Made by a program: the position numbers and the translations under genes
Shown here: positions 4,222-13,427 of the stretch, one piece after another
How the letters are laid out: each line of letters starts with the position of its first letter
How positions within the stretch are numbered: position 1 is the first letter of the stretch
Notes under the pieces: generated by a model
The model's database searches: none
What the model was told of the DNA's origin: nothing
Seen by the model: only the letters and a program-made list of their open reading frames with translations
Source of the DNA: a virus
Taxonomy: Duplodnaviria; Heunggongvirae; Uroviricota; Caudoviricetes
Length of the DNA: 15,060 nt
Virus record (IMG/VR): IMGVR_UViG_2875683775_000007
Strand: one strand, 5' to 3'

Positions 4222-4289
4222 AGTTGAAGCCCCAACTGCTGTAACAGTCAGGGCTTCGGCATCAACAAATCGGATTAGGAAATATTGAC
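4222..4289 (-). ncRNA. sar: Candidate sar-like antisense RNA covering the ant RBS
   Basis: Minus-strand promoter-like elements (-10 TATACT, complement of 4296-4301; weak -35) would start transcription near the ant start codon; inverted repeat GAAGCCC/GGGCTTC at 4226-4258 sits about 65 nt downstream. Matches the known arrangement of P22 sar, but the terminator lacks a clear U-run. Confidence 0.3.
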
Positions 4290-5168
4290 ATGAAAAGTAT
4301 AGCAAAGGCACAAAACGATTTCACCATCTTCAAATTCGGCGACAGTGAAATCCGCGTCATCAACAAGTGCGGTGAGCCGTGGTTTGTAGCTAAAGATGTT
4401 TGTGATGCTTTAGATTTGACTAACTCACGCAAGGCGCTTACTGCACTTGATGACGATGAAAAGGGAGTAACTTTAAGTTACACCCTTGGTGGTGAGCAGA
4501 ATCTAAGCATTGTGAGCGAATCAGGTATGTATACATTGGTTCTGCGCTGCCGCGATGCAGTCAATAAAGGTTCAGTCCCGCACAAATTCCGCAAGTGGGT
4601 AACAGCAGAAGTTCTGCCTTCAATTCGCAAACATGGCGAGTATGTAAAAGGAAAGAAAACCACTGTTGAGGAAAGAACACCGCTACGCGATGCAGTAAAC
4701 ATGCTGGTAGGAAAGAAAGGACTTCGCTATGACGATGCATACAATATGGTTCATCAGCGTTTTGGTATTGACAGCATTGATGAACTTTCAATTGAACAAA
4801 TCCCGCTGGCCGTAGAGTACATCCACAGGGTAGTGCTTGAAGGTGAGTTCATTGGCAAACAAGAGAAGAAAACCAACGAGCTTTCTGCAAAAGAAGCAAA
4901 CAGCCTTGTATGGTTATGGGATTATGCCAACCGCTCACAGGCATTATTCCGCGAACTGTATCCGGCGCTAAAACAAATTCAATCGAACTATTCCGGCAGA
5001 TGCTACGACTACGGTCATGAATTCTCGTATGTTATCGGAATGGCGAGAGACGTTTTAATAAACCACACACGAGATGTTGATATCAATGAGCCAGACGGAC
5101 CAACGAATCTTTCCGCATGGATGAGACTTAAGAATAAAGAATTACCTCCTTCAGTACATAACTACTGA
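4290..5168 (+). CDS. ant: Antirepressor Ant (Bro-N domain protein)
   Basis: N-terminal region ([26 protein letters not shown]) is a Bro-N/antirepressor motif; directly downstream of arc as in P22; AGGAAA RBS. Confidence 0.8.
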
Positions 5169-5210: not shown

Positions 5211-5269
5211 ATGCCCAAAATTCACCGTAGCTACGCTGCGGCGATTCCTTGTATCTGGAGCAAATTAAA

Positions 5270-7918
5270 ATGACAGATTCAATAAATGCCAATGTTGTGG
5301 TAAGCATGCCTTCTCAACTCTTCACTATGGCGCGTTCTTTTAAAGCCGTAGCCAATGGTAAAATTTATATCGGTAAAATTGACACTGATCCGGTAAATCC
5401 AGAAAACCAGATTCAGGTTTATGTGGAGAACGAAGACGGCTCTCACGTTCCTGTTTCTCAACCAATCATCATTAACGCTGCTGGTTATCCGGTATATAAC
5501 GGACAGATTGCCAAATTCGTTACCGTGCAAGGCCATTCTATGGCTGTTTATGATGCGTATGGTGCACAGCAGTTCTATTTTCCTAATGTGCTGAAGTATG
5601 ACCCGGATCAGTTTAAACAAAAAGTATTATCAAATGATATGCTAAATATGTCTCCTCTTTATTTTGGAGCTAAGGGGGATGGGATTAGCGATGATACTGA
5701 AGCATTTGTCGCGTTGGAAATGGATATAAAAAATAGGGTTATTGATTTAAGTGGAAGAGCATTTTTTGTTACTAAAAGTTTTATTGGAAATAGCTATATA
5801 AATGGTTCTTTTATTCGTGATGGCAGTAAACGAATTGCGATTGGTGATCTTAAATTAAGAGATAAAAGAGAGCCGTTGATATTTTCCGGAATGCCAAAAG
5901 TATATAACACCAGACACACGTTGCGCAGAACTGAAGGTGCGGGTGGTTTATATGCGGTCATTCAGGGGTGTTGTTATGATGAAATTAACGACAAGATTTT
6001 TACTTTATCATCTACCACAGCATACGGTTATTGCATTAATGCCTTTGACGTGACGAATTCTGGTGAACTAGGAAGATACGACAGAACCCGTTCTACTGAA
6101 CTTGGGCATCAGGGGCTTGGATTGCATCATAATCCTGATGGTACTGTCGTGCTGTGGACATCGAAGCCTTATGGAACCGATGCCGCCAATCAATGTATTT
6201 CGATGGAAAATATATTGAGTTACACAGGGACAACCAACGGAGTATCTGAAGGTTTTATCACCTGGAAGTTGTTCCCCTATGATGGAATGAGCGCAAGCTC
6301 TACTCCAGCTGTATCAAGTTGTGAAAACTATCTACTTGCCAAGAAAATTTCATCGGATGGAATTACCTGCACGGTTCGTGTTTTCGACATAGTCAGCATG
6401 TGGAATAACAGAGCTCATAAAACTGATTATAGTGATGATTATTTAGTTGAGTTTAGCTATCAAAAACCATCACAAGAAGCATTTACCCAATCAATTGCTT
6501 GCGATGGGGCATACATTTACATACTTGAGTCACATACGTATGTTGGCATGACTAATTATATTTACGTATTTGCCTTAACAGGCAGGTTTATTGAGCGAGT
6601 AGATATTTCAACTGTTGGTGATGATGAAGCAAAATCTGACAGTACAGGAACTCCTGTTTATAAAGAGCCTGAGTCCCTAACAGTAATTAGAACGGAGAGT
6701 GGGTATGTTTTAACGCTGGGGATATGCACATATAAAGGAGTTGCTGAGAACGGGAAAAATGTATATCTGTTTGATATAGGCAGGTCTGGTTCGGTAGTGC
6801 AAAGCAAAGCAAGCCGTTCTGTATCCAGTAATACTGGTCTTCATAGTTCTGGCTCCCCGGAGTTCAAATATGGAGTAAGGGAGTACAATGATACTTTTCA
6901 CTGGACAGTTTGGCCAACAAGAAAGGGTTTTCAAACTAACCGGGATAACCCTATATTGTTTCTTGATGGCGGAATTACTGGTGGAATGCAGTTAGCTTCA
7001 AACGGCACGGAAGGGATGAGCAACTCATGGGTTTCCCGGCATCAGTCAGACACCGCAGAAGGACCAAGAGCAATAATGTATAAGTCTCGCTCTGGTGTTG
7101 TATCAACTGATAATTTTGGAGCTCTGCAGACAGGGGATGTATTGGGTACTCATGTATGGGCCGGTGATACAGGTAGTAAGGCTGTGCAATGCGCACACAT
7201 TAAATGCGTCACAAGAGGTAATCCTTCCGGAGACAATATCCCGGTTGCTTTCTACTTTGGAACCATGGGAGAGAGTGACGGCTTGCGTGACAGATGGGTA
7301 TTAACAGAATTAGGTCATTTTCGACCATCAGGTTCAAATCTTTATGATATTGGTACACAGTCGAATACTGTCAGAAACCTGTATATAAATAATAGCCCCA
7401 TTGTAACCAGCGACAGAAATTATAAGCAGGATGAAGCTTCATTATCTGATGCAGAACTACGGGTTGGAATGGCTATTTACCCGCTGATAAAAAAATTCAG
7501 AATGAAGGATGCTGTAAAAGAAAAAGGCTTGTCAGCGCGTGAGCATATCGGTGTAATTGCGCAAGATATACAATCCATCTTTGAATCTGAGGGGCTTGAT
7601 GCATTTTCTTATGGGGTTCTTTGCTATGAAGAGTGGGATGATGAGTATGAGAAAGTCTATGCAACAAGAAATGTGACCAGAAAAATTTTAATTGATGAAG
7701 AGTCTGGTCAGTATGATGAAATCACAGAGGAAGAAGAGTATGAAACTGGTGAAGTAAGGTTAATTATGGAATCAGGAAGAAAATTATCAGTGCGCTATGA
7801 CGAGTTAATGTTTCTGGCAATGAGCGCACTATATCATCACCATGAGCAGGATATTGCCAATATCACATCAAAGATTAATAATCTGGAAAAATTATTAAAG
7901 TTAACACTAAATGGTTGA
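5270..7918 (+). CDS. Tailspike protein: P22 gp9-like head-binding N-terminus, right-handed beta-helix (pectate-lyase-like) receptor domain, C-terminal intramolecular chaperone (peptidase S74-like) domain
   Basis: [44 protein letters not shown] is near-identical to the P22 tailspike N-terminus as recalled; [14 protein letters not shown] is the hallmark start of pectate-lyase-type beta-helix domains; C-terminal ~150 aa (SDAELRVG...[12 protein letters not shown]...) resemble the auto-cleaving chaperone domain of endosialidases and tail fibres. Start chosen at 5270 (GGAG RBS) rather than 5249. Confidence 0.85.
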
Positions 7919-7964: not shown

Positions 7965-9080
7965 TTAAATTTCAGCTATAAAACCTTCATAATTATTTTG
8001 TAAAAAAGGTTTGATGAACTTACGCTGAGGGGTATAAATCATATCCTGATTTACTAAATCTGAGCGGATATTGAAAGTGGTTGAGAGCATGTTAAAGAAC
8101 ATCCTTTTCTTTTGCTCGTTGCCACCTGCTTTACCACATACCTTTTCCATCATTTCAAGGCATATCACCAGCCACGCATTGTAAAGCTTGGCCTTTTCTT
8201 CGTTAGTTTTTCCGCAAAAGTAAATCGTGTTAATAACCGAGTTAAGAATGAAGTGTCTATCTTCAAGAGGAAATTTTTGCCTTGATAAATGACCATTACC
8301 ATGGAATGTTAAATGATAATAATCTTTGTCAGCAAGAATAGATATATTGTTTGCTACAGATAGAGATTGAACCATAAATATTTTATCTTCAGCTACGGTG
8401 ATAGCTGGGTTGAAGAGAATGTTATGCTCTTTAAGCATATTTCTTCGGAAGAATTTGAAAATAGTTAACGACCGCAAGAGGTGATGCTTGGTTATATCTG
8501 CCTTATCTACAATTTTCACCTTGTATGGACGGATAGGCACCTCGCGATTACCATCTGATGCAATTTTGAAGTAAACAATATCACTATTATTTTTATCAGC
8601 AATATGAACCCCTCTCTCAAGAAGAGTTTCGTCAATATAGTCATCGGAATCCATGAAGAAAATATAACGCCCTTTTGCTGCTTTTATCCCCTCATTTCGC
8701 GGGGTTGAAGCGTTACCTGAACCAATTTCTCGGCGAATAATTCTGTAGTTAATATCCGGTGCTATATTATATTCTATAGCAGCAATGCTTTTGTCACTTG
8801 AACAATCATCGACAAAAATAACCTCAAAGCGATCCTTATTAATTGTTTGGTTATTAAGTGAGTTAATGCATTTAAGAATAAGTTTTTCACGATTATGAAC
8901 AGGGATAACAACTGACACATCTAATGGGCAAAAATGGTTAATCTCATTAACTACAGTCGTTATTTTAGTAAAAGCCGCCAACAAAGCTGTTGTTAAATCA
9001 GTAGAAGATAAAAGGCTTTCTTTTTTAGTATTAGCTTTTATGTTAAAATAGAACCAATTATTACGAGGTACAAAATCCAC
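7965..9080 (-). CDS. Family-2 glycosyltransferase catalytic-domain ORF (downstream part of phase-variable gene; frame stays open upstream through the repeat)
   Basis: VSVVIPVHNRE...FEVIFVDDCSSD...FFMDSDDYID are GT2 (GT-A fold) signature motifs including the DxD. The ORF-track M at 9080 is a GTG with no RBS; in this frame the sequence reads (SQPA)n-FVSV upstream with no stop. Gene is visibly AT-rich compared with the flanking chromosome. Confidence 0.8.
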   Translation of the reverse strand: MDFVPRNNWFYFNIKANTKKESLLSSTDLTTALLAAFTKITTVVNEINHFCPLDVSVVIPVHNREKLILKCINSLNNQTINKDRFEVIFVDDCSSDKSIAAIEYNIAPDINYRIIRREIGSGNASTPRNEGIKAAKGRYIFFMDSDDYIDETLLERGVHIADKNNSDIVYFKIASDGNREVPIRPYKVKIVDKADITKHHLLRSLTIFKFFRRNMLKEHNILFNPAITVAEDKIFMVQSLSVANNISILADKDYYHLTFHGNGHLSRQKFPLEDRHFILNSVINTIYFCGKTNEEKAKLYNAWLVICLEMMEKVCGKAGGNEQKKRMFFNMLSTTFNIRSDLVNQDMIYTPQRKFIKPFLQNNYEGFIAEI

Positions 9081-9082
9081 GC

Positions 9083-9433
<351 letters not shown>

Positions 9434-9976: not shown

Positions 9977-11134
9977 TCACTCCACCTTTTCATCAATCCA
10001 GTCCGCCCACCACTGCATCATTTCTCTGCGCTTATCTAGATACTGAGCATGGTTGTAAATCCCGCGCACAGATCCGCCGTTGGCATGTGCCAGTTGCACT
10101 TCAATGGCGTCGGCGGGCCATTCGTGCTCGTTCATAATCGTGCTGAATTCATGCCTGAATCCGTGACCGCTTTCCAGACCTTCATAGCCGATTTTTTTGA
10201 TCACAAGCAGTACCGCATTCTCGCAGATTGGCTTCTTCTTATCGTTGCGACCGGCAAAAACAAACTCTGATACTGGTTTAGTGATTGAGCTTAGCGTAGT
10301 GAGAAGTTCAACTACCTGGTCTGACATAGGAACCACATGAATTTTGCGTCCCTTCATCACACTGGCGTCGATGGTGATAATCCTGTTTTCAAAATCGACG
10401 TTCTTCCATAGCATGGAACGAAGCTCTTTCGTTCTTAGGGCTGTGTAGCGCAAAACTTTAGTCGCAATGAGCGATACGATGCTTCCTGAAAATGTTGCAA
10501 GTGCTTTGTTGAATGCCGGGATCTGGTCGGCAGGAAGAAACGGGAAGTTCTTCTTGCGGTATCCCTTCATGGCGTCAGCAAGGTCAGGTGCTGGGTTATA
10601 TTTAGCCCTGCCGGTGACAATAGCGTAACGGAAAACCTCGCCGCATCTTCTGCGGGCTTTGTTGGCTCGCTCCATTGCACCGCGATCTTCGAATCTGCGG
10701 ATTACTTCCAGCAGTTGCATCGGCTCAATATCCTGAATCTCAAGGCCGCCGATGATGGGCAAAATGTCGTCATCAAACATTTTGGCAAGTTCAGTTGCAT
10801 AGCCTACTGACCAGACTTGCTTCTTGTGCTCGTACCATTCCTTGTAAATCGCACTAAATGAATTGTTGTTAGACGAAGCCTTTTTCGCCTTTACCGGGTC
10901 GATGCCAACCGAGATGTCTTTCCTCGCGGTCCATGCTTTATCCCTTGCTTCCTGCAAAGTCATAAGCGGATATTTTCCGACGGTCAGGATTTTCTCCTTA
11001 CCGTCAATCTTGTAGCGAAGCTGCCATACCTTTTTCCCTGACACAGGGACATAAAGGTACAGGCCATTACCATCGAGTAGGCGGTATGGTTTTTCTTTCG
11101 GCTTTGCTGCTTCAATCTGCTTAACGGTGAGCAT
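9977..11134 (-). CDS. intS: P4/KplE1-type tyrosine integrase (385 aa from MLTVKQIE start)
   Basis: Adjacent to the 3' end of argW and co-oriented with it; N-terminus and length match IntS of the argW prophage as I recall it; C-terminal region carries the tyrosine-recombinase catalytic domain. An alternative upstream GTG start at 11170 (ORF track) cannot be excluded. Confidence 0.85.
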   Translation of the reverse strand: MLTVKQIEAAKPKEKPYRLLDGNGLYLYVPVSGKKVWQLRYKIDGKEKILTVGKYPLMTLQEARDKAWTARKDISVGIDPVKAKKASSNNNSFSAIYKEWYEHKKQVWSVGYATELAKMFDDDILPIIGGLEIQDIEPMQLLEVIRRFEDRGAMERANKARRRCGEVFRYAIVTGRAKYNPAPDLADAMKGYRKKNFPFLPADQIPAFNKALATFSGSIVSLIATKVLRYTALRTKELRSMLWKNVDFENRIITIDASVMKGRKIHVVPMSDQVVELLTTLSSITKPVSEFVFAGRNDKKKPICENAVLLVIKKIGYEGLESGHGFRHEFSTIMNEHEWPADAIEVQLAHANGGSVRGIYNHAQYLDKRREMMQWWADWIDEKVE

Positions 11135-11180
11135 GGGTAAAAATCCGGTGGGTAAAATTATTTTATCCACTTTTTACCCG
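11135..11180. promoter_or_regulatory. Clustered GGGTAAAA(A/T) motifs (two direct, one inverted) at the int start, in the attL/int promoter region
   Basis: GGGTAAAAA at 11135-11143, GGGTAAAAT at 11150-11158, inverted copy CTTTTTACCC at 11171-11180; candidate integrase arm-type or RDF binding sites. Confidence 0.35.
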
Positions 11181-11295
11181 TCATGGAGTGCGGCTGTCAA
11201 CGATCTGACGCGAACCATTACGAACTGTGCATCTACAGAAGGCTTGATATTCAGGGGATTTTGCGGACTGGTACGGATGGGGGCGAACTGATAAA

Positions 11296-11370
11296 TGGTG
11301 TCCCCTGCAGGAATCGAACCTGCAATTAGCCCTTAGGAGGGGCTCGTTATATCCATTTAACTAAGAGGAC
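11296..11370 (-). tRNA. argW: tRNA-Arg (anticodon CCU), 75 nt including CCA
   Basis: Reverse complement reads GTCCTCTTAGTTAAATGGATATAACGAGCCCCTCCTAAGGGCTAATTGCAGGTTCGATTCCTGCAGGGGACACCA; cloverleaf with 7-bp acceptor stem, anticodon loop CUCCUAA, T-loop TTCGATT. Confidence 0.95.
11310..11325. other. attL core candidate inside argW (16 bp identical to 221-236)
   Basis: Exact direct repeat of the 221-236 sequence, located in the tRNA T-arm next to the integrase gene. Confidence 0.55.
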
Positions 11371-11445: not shown

Positions 11446-12378
11446 TTATGCCGGGTTTTTATAATTTTTCTTAATGTTTTCCGCACGTTCTGCTTTTTGG
11501 CGTGCTTCTGCTTTACGCTTATTGCTCATGTCGTTACGAATCTGTGCATGACTCATTAACGCGAAGATAAAGGTGCCGCCGCAGATGTTCCCCGCTAAAG
11601 TAGGTAGTGCGAAGGGCCAGATGAAATCGCTCCAGTGCAGCGTGCCGTTAAACACCAGATAGAGGATTTCAACAGAACCGACCACGATATGGGTGGTGTC
11701 ACCCAGGGCAATAAGCCAGGTCATCAATATAATCACCACAATCTTTGCCGCACCCGCTGCAGGAAACATCCAAACCATAGTGGCGATCAGCCAGCCGGAA
11801 ATGATCGCGTTGGCAAACATCTCGCTGGGGGTGTTCTTCATCACATCCATGCCGATTTTGACAAATGCATCGCGAGTTTCTTCATTGAAGATAGGCATAT
11901 ATTCAAATGCCCACGCCGCAATACCTGTCCCGAGAATATTACCCAGCAGCACGACGCCCCATAACCGTATAAGTAAGCCGACGTTGCTCATTGTCGGTTT
12001 TTGCATGACGGGTAGTACCGCAGTCACGGTATTTTCGGTAAATAATTGCTGGCGGGCCATAATGACGATAATAAAACCAAAGGTATAACCGAGATTCTCC
12101 AGCAAGAAGCTGCCCGGCACACCTTCCAGTTCGACATGAAATATCCCTTTTGCCAGTAACGAAGCGCCCATCGACAGACCCGCCGCAATGGCTGACCACA
12201 GTAGCGCCATTGCGTCGCGTTCCAGCTCTTTTTCACCATCCTGGCGGATATGCTCATGAATTGCCATCGCCCGGGAGGGGAGTCGGTCTTCATCTATTTC
12301 TATTTTTTTGCCGCGCTCTTTTTCTTCGCTCTCAACTTCAATTTCGTCGCTGTGTTGATCAATTTTGTCGTTGTCCAT
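11446..12378 (-). CDS. yfdC: Inner-membrane protein of the formate/nitrite transporter family
   Basis: 310-aa protein with acidic N-terminal tail followed by multiple hydrophobic helices; sequence and position next to argW match E. coli YfdC as recalled. Confidence 0.85.
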   Translation of the reverse strand: MDNDKIDQHSDEIEVESEEKERGKKIEIDEDRLPSRAMAIHEHIRQDGEKELERDAMALLWSAIAAGLSMGASLLAKGIFHVELEGVPGSFLLENLGYTFGFIIVIMARQQLFTENTVTAVLPVMQKPTMSNVGLLIRLWGVVLLGNILGTGIAAWAFEYMPIFNEETRDAFVKIGMDVMKNTPSEMFANAIISGWLIATMVWMFPAAGAAKIVVIILMTWLIALGDTTHIVVGSVEILYLVFNGTLHWSDFIWPFALPTLAGNICGGTFIFALMSHAQIRNDMSNKRKAEARQKAERAENIKKNYKNPA

Positions 12379-12671: not shown

Positions 12672-13427
12672 ATGAAGCTTCGCCTGTCGGCGCTTGCTCT
12701 GGGAACTACGCTTCTGGTGGGGTGTGCGAGTTCCGGTACAGATCAGCAAGGGCGTTCTGACCCGTTAGAAGGGTTCAACCGCACCATGTACAACTTCAAC
12801 TTCAATGTATTAGACCCGTATATTGTTCGACCGGTCGCTGTCGCCTGGCGTGATTATGTTCCGCAACCGGCGCGTAACGGTTTGAGCAACTTTACTGGCA
12901 ACCTTGAAGAACCTGCGGTGATGGTTAACTACTTCTTGCAGGGCGACCCTTATCAGGGGATGGTCCACTTTACCCGCTTTTTCCTGAACACCATTTTGGG
13001 GATGGGCGGTTTTATTGATGTTGCAGGGATGGCGAACCCGAAACTGCAACGGACTGAACCTCACCGCTTCGGTAGTACGCTTGGTCATTATGGCGTGGGT
13101 TATGGGCCTTACGTCCAGTTACCGTTCTACGGTAGCTTCACGCTGCGTGATGACGGTGGTGATATGGCGGATGGTCTTTACCCGGTTCTTTCCTGGCTGA
13201 CCTGGCCGATGTCTGTGGGTAAATGGACGCTTGAAGGGATAGAAACTCGTGCGCAGTTGTTGGATTCCGATGGTCTGCTGCGTCAGTCGTCCGATCCTTA
13301 TATTATGGTGCGCGAAGCGTACTTCCAGCGTCATGATTTCATCGCTAATGGCGGCGAACTCAAACCGCAGGAAAATCCGAACGCACAAGCGATTCAGGAT
13401 GATTTAAAAGATATTGATTCTGAATAA
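12672..13427 (+). CDS. mlaA: Outer-membrane lipoprotein MlaA (VacJ), phospholipid transport
   Basis: 251 aa, lipobox LLVGC at the N-terminus, conserved MlaA/VacJ core; divergent from yfdC as in E. coli. Confidence 0.9.
   Translation: MKLRLSALALGTTLLVGCASSGTDQQGRSDPLEGFNRTMYNFNFNVLDPYIVRPVAVAWRDYVPQPARNGLSNFTGNLEEPAVMVNYFLQGDPYQGMVHFTRFFLNTILGMGGFIDVAGMANPKLQRTEPHRFGSTLGHYGVGYGPYVQLPFYGSFTLRDDGGDMADGLYPVLSWLTWPMSVGKWTLEGIETRAQLLDSDGLLRQSSDPYIMVREAYFQRHDFIANGGELKPQENPNAQAIQDDLKDIDSE

Follow-up and report, generated by a model that had tools for sequence, protein, structure and literature searches.

Between the start codon of a prophage integrase gene and the neighbouring tRNA gene, a 15,060-nt stretch of viral DNA (the window, meaning the whole of the sequence analysed here) carries several copies of the short motif GGGTAAAA(A/T), which raises the question of which protein these repeats serve and how they relate to expression of the integrase. 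With a probability of about 0.93, we assign the repeats as arm-type (P') sites of the integrase IntS on the attL P' arm of a P22/HK620-like prophage in argW, an assignment that rests on identity to the K-12 sequence.

A P22-like prophage at argW

At attL, the window joins host DNA to a P22-like prophage whose recombination module is of the KplE1 type. In the list of open reading frames, intS (9977–11134, − strand; ATG at 11134–11132) encodes a prophage tyrosine integrase of 385 aa, in which Pfam recognises PF13356 (Arm-DNA-bind_3, residues 2–86, E 2e-25), PF22022 and PF00589, a layout of N-terminal arm-binding, central and catalytic domains. The integration target argW, a tRNA-Arg(CCT) gene, was located at 11296–11370 (−) by ARAGORN and by the Rfam tRNA model; scanning the att region with Rfam gave no match besides this tRNA. 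The attL core (O), CTGCAGGGGACACCAT, which is the strand-exchange site and has the sequence given for KplE1 (PMC2951348), occurs as an exact, single copy in the window at 11295–11310 (−), where it overlaps the 3' end of argW next to the P' arm. argW and intS share the − strand, the tRNA gene coming first and 161 bp separating the two; this arrangement ('STI') recurred in 23 of 25 related loci that were scanned.

Comparison with other genomes places the junction in familiar company. The intS region is ~96% identical to K-12 derivatives, the RefSeq homologue is named 'prophage integrase IntS' and lies beside argW and yfdC, and in the window the tRNA side is flanked by the host genes yfdC (11446–12378) and mlaA (12672–13427). 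Of 5426 complete E. coli genomes, 1897 (~35%) carry the same attL arm. Behind intS, 11 kb of DNA shows mosaic matches to the P22-like phages HK620, Sf6, CUS-3 and Kapi1, and encodes a tailspike with a P22 head-binding domain, an Ant antirepressor, a family-2 glycosyltransferase and the sar antisense RNA, along with DNA-ejection proteins.

Several features of this phage DNA were noted in passing. The P22 immI antisense RNA sar (Rfam RF00262, 65.6 bits; 4222–4288, −) is found immediately upstream of an ant-like gene (4290–5168; Bro-N and P22_AR_C domains), which fits an intact P22-type immI region. The tailspike (5249–7918, +) joins the P22 head-binding domain to a C-terminal endosialidase-chaperone (Peptidase_S74) domain. 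Between tailspike and int lie the glycosyltransferase (371 aa; 7965–9080, −) and a small PT-repeat protein (9083–9433, −), in the slot that yfdG/yfdH occupy in KplE1 and that an O-acetyltransferase occupies in Sf6; the two are probably serotype-converting cargo. A tailspike copy with 99.3% identity is found in a prophage remnant at torS/torT of E. coli GMF054 beside a different, truncated integrase, from which it appears that the receptor-binding and cargo module moves between integration modules. The GMF054 DNA, the closest E. coli match to the tailspike/glycosyltransferase region, was considered as a source of attR and rejected, as the remnant is at torS/torT and has another integrase.

Repeats, promoter and TorI boxes on the P' arm

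Exact matches to GGGTAAAA(A/T), written as GGGTAAAAW, occur at 11135–11143 (+), 11150–11158 (+) and 11171–11179 (−), all three within the 45 bp upstream of the intS ATG. This agrees with the original prediction, which had described two direct copies and an inverted one clustered within 50 bp of the int start, between int and the tRNA. Its count of three holds for exact matches near the int start, but misses a fourth, degenerate copy, GGATAAAAT at 11160–11168 (−), with one mismatch, which a one-mismatch search adds in the middle of the cluster (GGATAAAA at 11161–11168). Over the whole window GGGTAAAAW was observed four times, against 0.35 ± 0.58 expected from dinucleotide-preserving shuffles of the window (n=200), of which 0/200 reached four; a rough Poisson estimate for three copies in 45 bp is ~1e-7. 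The fourth exact match, GGGTAAAAT at 9295–9303 (−), lies 1.8 kb away in the small PT-repeat ORF and was rejected as a member of the attachment site, since it is inside an ORF and fits chance (0.35 expected per window). Read in the direction of intS, the cluster is GAC GGGTAAAAA GT GGATAAAAT AA TTTTACCC ACCGGA TTTTTACCC ATG, that is, two copies in intS orientation and then two inverted ones, the last of which touches the start codon.

In every respect that can be tested from sequence, the locus is the KplE1/HK620 attL itself and not merely similar to it. Between the core and the ATG, the window aligns without a gap with the K-12 KplE1 attL and the HK620 attP, and the last ~100 bp, which contain TorI site I5, the −35 and −10 elements, the four repeats and the intS start, are identical in all three. 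Using the published fragment '−223 to +64', equivalent to 2464344–2464630 (PMC2951348), as a coordinate anchor puts the A of the ATG at 2464567, and all published K-12 coordinates then land on matching window bases through the gap-free alignment. KplE1 (CPS-53) shares with the window the argW site, the 16-bp core and co-linear DNA from core to ATG without indels, has an identical −35, −10, transcription start and set of four P' sites, and contains five TorI boxes with the same GTTCG-type cores. The differences are a few substitutions, located in spacers and at the leading base of TorI boxes I3–I5; at I4 and I5 the window agrees with HK620, and at I3 it departs from both K-12 and HK620. KplE1 is, moreover, a 10-kb remnant, whereas the window prophage, with its tailspike, ant, sar RNA and DNA-ejection proteins, has the look of a full P22-like element. 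Among the Lederbergvirus phages with an IntS–TorI module (HK620, Sf6, CUS-3), the integrase DNA is ~95–96% identical to the window and the P' arm is identical; the cargo between tailspike and int differs, being an O-acetyltransferase in Sf6 and a family-2 glycosyltransferase in the window. In the GenBank record of HK620 (AF335538), these stretches already carry 'attP' repeat and promoter annotations.

The KplE1 attL has four IntS arm-type sites, P'1–P'4, all of which contain TAAA (Panis et al. 2010, PMC2951348). We placed their borders in the window by combining the published description (four sites, TAAA in all, P'1 over the −10) with the positions of the repeats; only four TAAA repeats lie between the −10 and the ATG, so these are P'1 to P'4. 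P'1 (GGGTAAAAA, 11171–11179, −) is an exact match whose TAAAAA part is the −10 of the intS promoter PintS. P'2 (GGATAAAAT, 11160–11168, −), the degenerate site with one mismatch, has the orientation of intS, spans the transcription start and forms a near-palindrome with P'3, GGGTAAAAT-T-ATTTTATCC. The last two, P'3 (GGGTAAAAT, 11150–11158, +) and P'4 (GGGTAAAAA, 11135–11143, +), are exact matches inverted relative to intS within its 5' leader; they flank a conserved spacer, ACCGGA (11144–11149, −), which carries GGA, and P'4, the same in K-12 and HK620 and kept in relatives, directly abuts the ATG. Direct binding of IntS to the identical K-12 sites is reported in work cited by PMC2951348.

The original prediction had also stated that the integrase promoter of KplE1-type modules overlaps attL and is controlled by integrase and excisionase, which is indeed published for this co-linear DNA (PMC2951348). 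Experiments on the identical K-12 sequence established the promoter, its start of transcription and its repression by IntS and TorI, and included the site mutagenesis. PintS of K-12 lies inside attL with a −35 TTGACA and a −10 TAaAAa (PMC2951348); in the window, TTGACA is at 11195–11200 (−) and, across an 18-nt spacer, TAAAAA is at 11171–11176 (−), within P'1 and identical to K-12. Primer extension mapped the K-12 intS transcription starts to T/A at 2464536/2464537 (PMC2951348), which transfer by alignment to T 11165 and A 11164 (−), 31 and 30 nt before the ATG, for a leader of 30 nt. A sigma-70 scan of our own called an overlapping ATGACG-16-AATAAT and not TTGACA-18-TAAAAA, owing to the missing final T of TAAAAA; the position of the mapped start speaks for PintS as published. 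No terminator was found in the promoter/terminator scan.

In K-12, P'1 overlaps the −10 and any TAAA mutation there kills the promoter, PintS is repressed ~5-fold by IntS and also by TorI, and single mutants of P'2, P'3 or P'4 retain 4.0–5.2-fold repression (PMC2951348). TorI, the excisionase (RDF), has five sites with GTTCG/GATCG/GTCCG cores, of which I1 and I2 are 12 nt apart (2464409–2464436) and I3–I5 are 2 nt apart (2464472–2464499), and its repression of PintS is mediated by I4 and I5, adjoining the −35 (PMC2951348). Mapped from K-12 onto the window, I2 and I1 (TACCAGTC and TATCAGTT, 12 nt apart) lie at 11265–11292 (−), and I5, I4 and I3 at 11202–11229 (−), the latter as 8-bp boxes GTCAGATC, AATGGTTC and CACAGTTC, each followed by G and 2 nt apart. 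The GTTCG cores of I3–I5 are conserved in relatives.

The absence of an obvious Shine-Dalgarno sequence, also part of the original prediction, withstood a quantitative look. Within the 22 nt that precede the intS ATG, nothing pairs with the anti-SD better than a bare GGA, with a ΔG of −3.3 kcal/mol, which ~30% of random 22-mers from the window equal, compared to −8.2 for mlaA in the same window; this GGA, 10 nt before the ATG within the ACCGGA spacer, is the sole SD-like element. The leader RNA has no significant predicted structure (−3.9 kcal/mol for 65 nt). An in-frame GTG at 11170 (−), 12 codons upstream, was rejected as the intS start: the mapped start of transcription is downstream of it, residue 2 of the ATG-initiated protein is already the first of the Pfam arm domain, and codon-like variation is seen only after the ATG. 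On the other strand, a 54-aa GTG ORF (11127–11291, +) that is antisense over the entire P' arm looks spurious.

Conservation, the second arm and a GGGCAT dialect

The attR of the window prophage is outside the window. On the opposite (P) arm, the HK620 attP and the K-12 attR each have two more GGGTAAAAT copies, spaced 12 bp apart. Relatives of IntS with 66–83% identity were found in Citrobacter, Dryocola, Pantoea, Edwardsiella, Rouxiella, Erwinia, Serratia, Tatumella, Mixta, Xenorhabdus and Rosenbergiella; their loci adjoin tRNA-Arg(CCT) in all scanned except Mixta, at an almost fixed distance in most. The original prediction had pointed to related att regions as a place where its motifs ought to recur, and they do so both on the K-12 attR and HK620 attP and as a phylogenetic footprint, the four-site layout being kept in argW-integrated relatives from more than ten genera. 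Mean identity to the window, computed across 16 argW-integrated relatives, is 1.00 for the −35 (invariant in 17/17 aligned sequences), 0.94 for P'3, 0.92 for P'1, 0.78 for P'4 and 0.73 for P'2, which reads as a perfect GGGTAAA in most relatives, while spacers reach 0.28–0.62. The GGG/CCC parts of the sites are invariant across genera, and P'4 abuts the ATG in every relative.

Individual loci depart from this layout. Escherichia whittamii (locus L031, upstream of position 1501) has three sites, with P'4 and the ACCGGA spacer missing, apparently through a deletion between the P'3 and P'4 direct repeats; its −35 is mutated to TTAACA and its int match is cut to 159 aa, so that the module is one in decay. 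Two Xenorhabdus loci (L017, L019) have three sites, one of them inverted, with apparently full-length integrases. The second of these, from Xenorhabdus hominickii (L019), contains a tandem array of about eight copies of CCCTTAAAT in attL (~1310–1400) between the I1–I2 and I3–I5 blocks, making its arm ~65 bp longer than that of all other relatives.

A sister lineage, with integrases 58–61% identical to IntS and likewise located at tRNA-Arg(CCT), keeps the layout, but every site reads GGGCAT/ATGCCC (loci L014, L022–L025, L029 and L056, each upstream of position 1501, and L091, L102–L104, L108–L110, L112, L114, L115 and L117). In viral contigs with an intact GGGCAT-type attP, the P arm holds two more GGGCAT copies at a spacing of 12 bp, 72–84 bp beyond the core, and these copies are absent from tRNA-joined contigs, i.e. 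those in prophage configuration. Both dialects share the core, the RDF boxes, a −35 of TTGAC(A/T), P'1 on the −10 and a last site abutting the ATG, and both lineages keep CGGA ~10–12 nt upstream of the ATG. Within the N-terminal domain of the integrase, the differences N23G, T51V and V52I are fully fixed between the lineages, and Q38R and K54P nearly so. Six sites that are distributed over both arms and change with the integrase argue for arm-type sites, and against promoter elements or TorI sites.

Judged from these alignments, the switch looks like a natural swap of arm specificity. We give roughly even odds to the combined proposition that argW elements use at least two arm-site dialects, that the swap pinpoints the residues for arm recognition and that weak translation of the integrase is under selection. 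No earlier description of the GGGCAT and GGGTAAA dialects was found in a literature search that was not thorough, and the GGGCAT dialect, with its shared architecture, is the only mildly new item here. As a separate observation, the presumed RDF boxes beside the −35 read CGAAC/GAACC in some GGGCAT-type elements (L023, L024, L025, L056, L115), opposite to the KplE1 GTTCG, and GTTCT/GTTCG in others (L112, L103), like KplE1 and the window (11202–11229); the orientation of RDF sites appears to flip between lineages.

Competing readings, mechanism and significance

Could the leader-borne repeats act in RNA as well? P'3 and P'4, with CGGA, might form a weak translation-initiation region or a protein target on the mRNA, by analogy with Vis on the int mRNA of phage P4. 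Both sites are transcribed (the leader starts at 11164/11165), a real SD is missing, and the constant position of P'4 on the ATG and of CGGA ~10–12 nt upstream of it in both lineages would suit such a role, as would the narrow IntS optimum, with excess inhibiting excision, and the P4 Vis precedent. The 65-nt leader is, however, predicted to form no stable structure (−3.9 kcal/mol), and DNA binding accounts for the repression that was published on the basis of transcriptional gfp fusions (PMC2951348), which leaves an RNA-level function very improbable.

Binding of the excisionase TorI, and not of the integrase, to the GGGTAAAA motifs is less probable still. TorI does bind attL and repress PintS, and the original prediction had left it open as a partner alongside IntS; of the two, IntS is borne out, as arm-type binding, by identity to K-12, but TorI is not. 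The published TorI boxes map further upstream, to 11202–11229 and 11265–11292, beyond the −35, the GGGTAAAA motifs are without a GTTCG/GATCG/GTCCG-type sequence, they are also present on the attR/P arm and co-vary with the N-terminal domain of the integrase, and the TAAA sites are labelled IntS arm-type in PMC2951348. No more probable is the idea that the repeats are simply A/T-rich promoter or leader DNA, duplicated −10-like hexamers clustered by local composition and with no docking role, for although one copy is the actual −10, the region is A/T-rich and the scan finds a −10-like AATAAT nearby, the shuffles give 0.35 copies where four are observed, the GGG/CCC parts, which a −10 does not need, do not vary between genera, the opposite arm has copies far away from any int promoter, and the sister lineage switches the whole set to GGGCAT on both arms.

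For the IntS arm-type reading, our own analysis contributes sequence identity, site mapping, both-arm presence, conservation and covariation, and the likely mechanism can be outlined from the K-12 system. In the direction of intS the sites are ordered P'1 → P'2 → ← P'3 ← P'4. The N-terminal arm-binding domain of IntS would dock on P'1–P'4 while its catalytic domain holds the core 120–170 bp away; at attR, the N-terminal domain would dock on P1–P2. TorI, on the GTTCG boxes I1–I5, would bend the DNA in between, folding attL into an excisive intasome. Such heterobivalent docking with RDF-induced bending is established for lambda-type integrases and for KplE1 (for the latter, PMC2951348).

The same DNA would serve as promoter and leader, with P'1 holding the −10, P'2 covering the start and P'3/P'4 filling the 30-nt leader. 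IntS at P'1 would occlude the −10 and block RNA polymerase, giving the ~5-fold self-repression, and TorI at I4/I5 beside the −35 would repress intS as well; the missing SD may add to keeping IntS low. The concentration optimum of IntS is narrow and excess IntS inhibits excision (PMC2951348), which would explain the tight control. Only P'1 has a demonstrated regulatory role, in the identical K-12 sequence. Because single mutations in P'2–P'4 did not relieve repression, the main role of these three sites is probably intasome assembly, and any regulatory contribution from them would be redundant or absent. We infer that the window prophage behaves like K-12 KplE1, and the conserved layout in both lineages, with P'4 on the ATG and CGGA distal to it, suggests that weak translation is selected as part of the design.

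Among better-known systems, lambda Int, with arm sites P1, P2 and P'1–P'3, is likewise a tyrosine integrase of the heterobivalent kind, with an N-terminal domain that binds repeats flanking the core, but lambda int is transcribed from PI/PL and not from a promoter inside attL. Phage P4 resembles the KplE1-type module in that Int and the RDF both down-regulate int, whereas Vis is proposed to act on int mRNA and TorI acts on DNA. In this comparison the number, spacing, orientation and motif of the arm sites differ from the KplE1 type as well. A recent survey counts KplE1 as one of the few heterobivalent systems to have been characterised in full.

The interpretation offered by the original prediction is correct but not new, and the feature is a known and ordinary one. 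Sites, promoter and regulation were worked out for the identical K-12/HK620 sequence between 2001 and 2010, so that the significance of the finding beyond correct annotation is small; the attL of the window can now be annotated at base resolution. The conservation data and the switch between GGGTAAA and GGGCAT offer a starting point for re-engineering the arm specificity of this integrase family.
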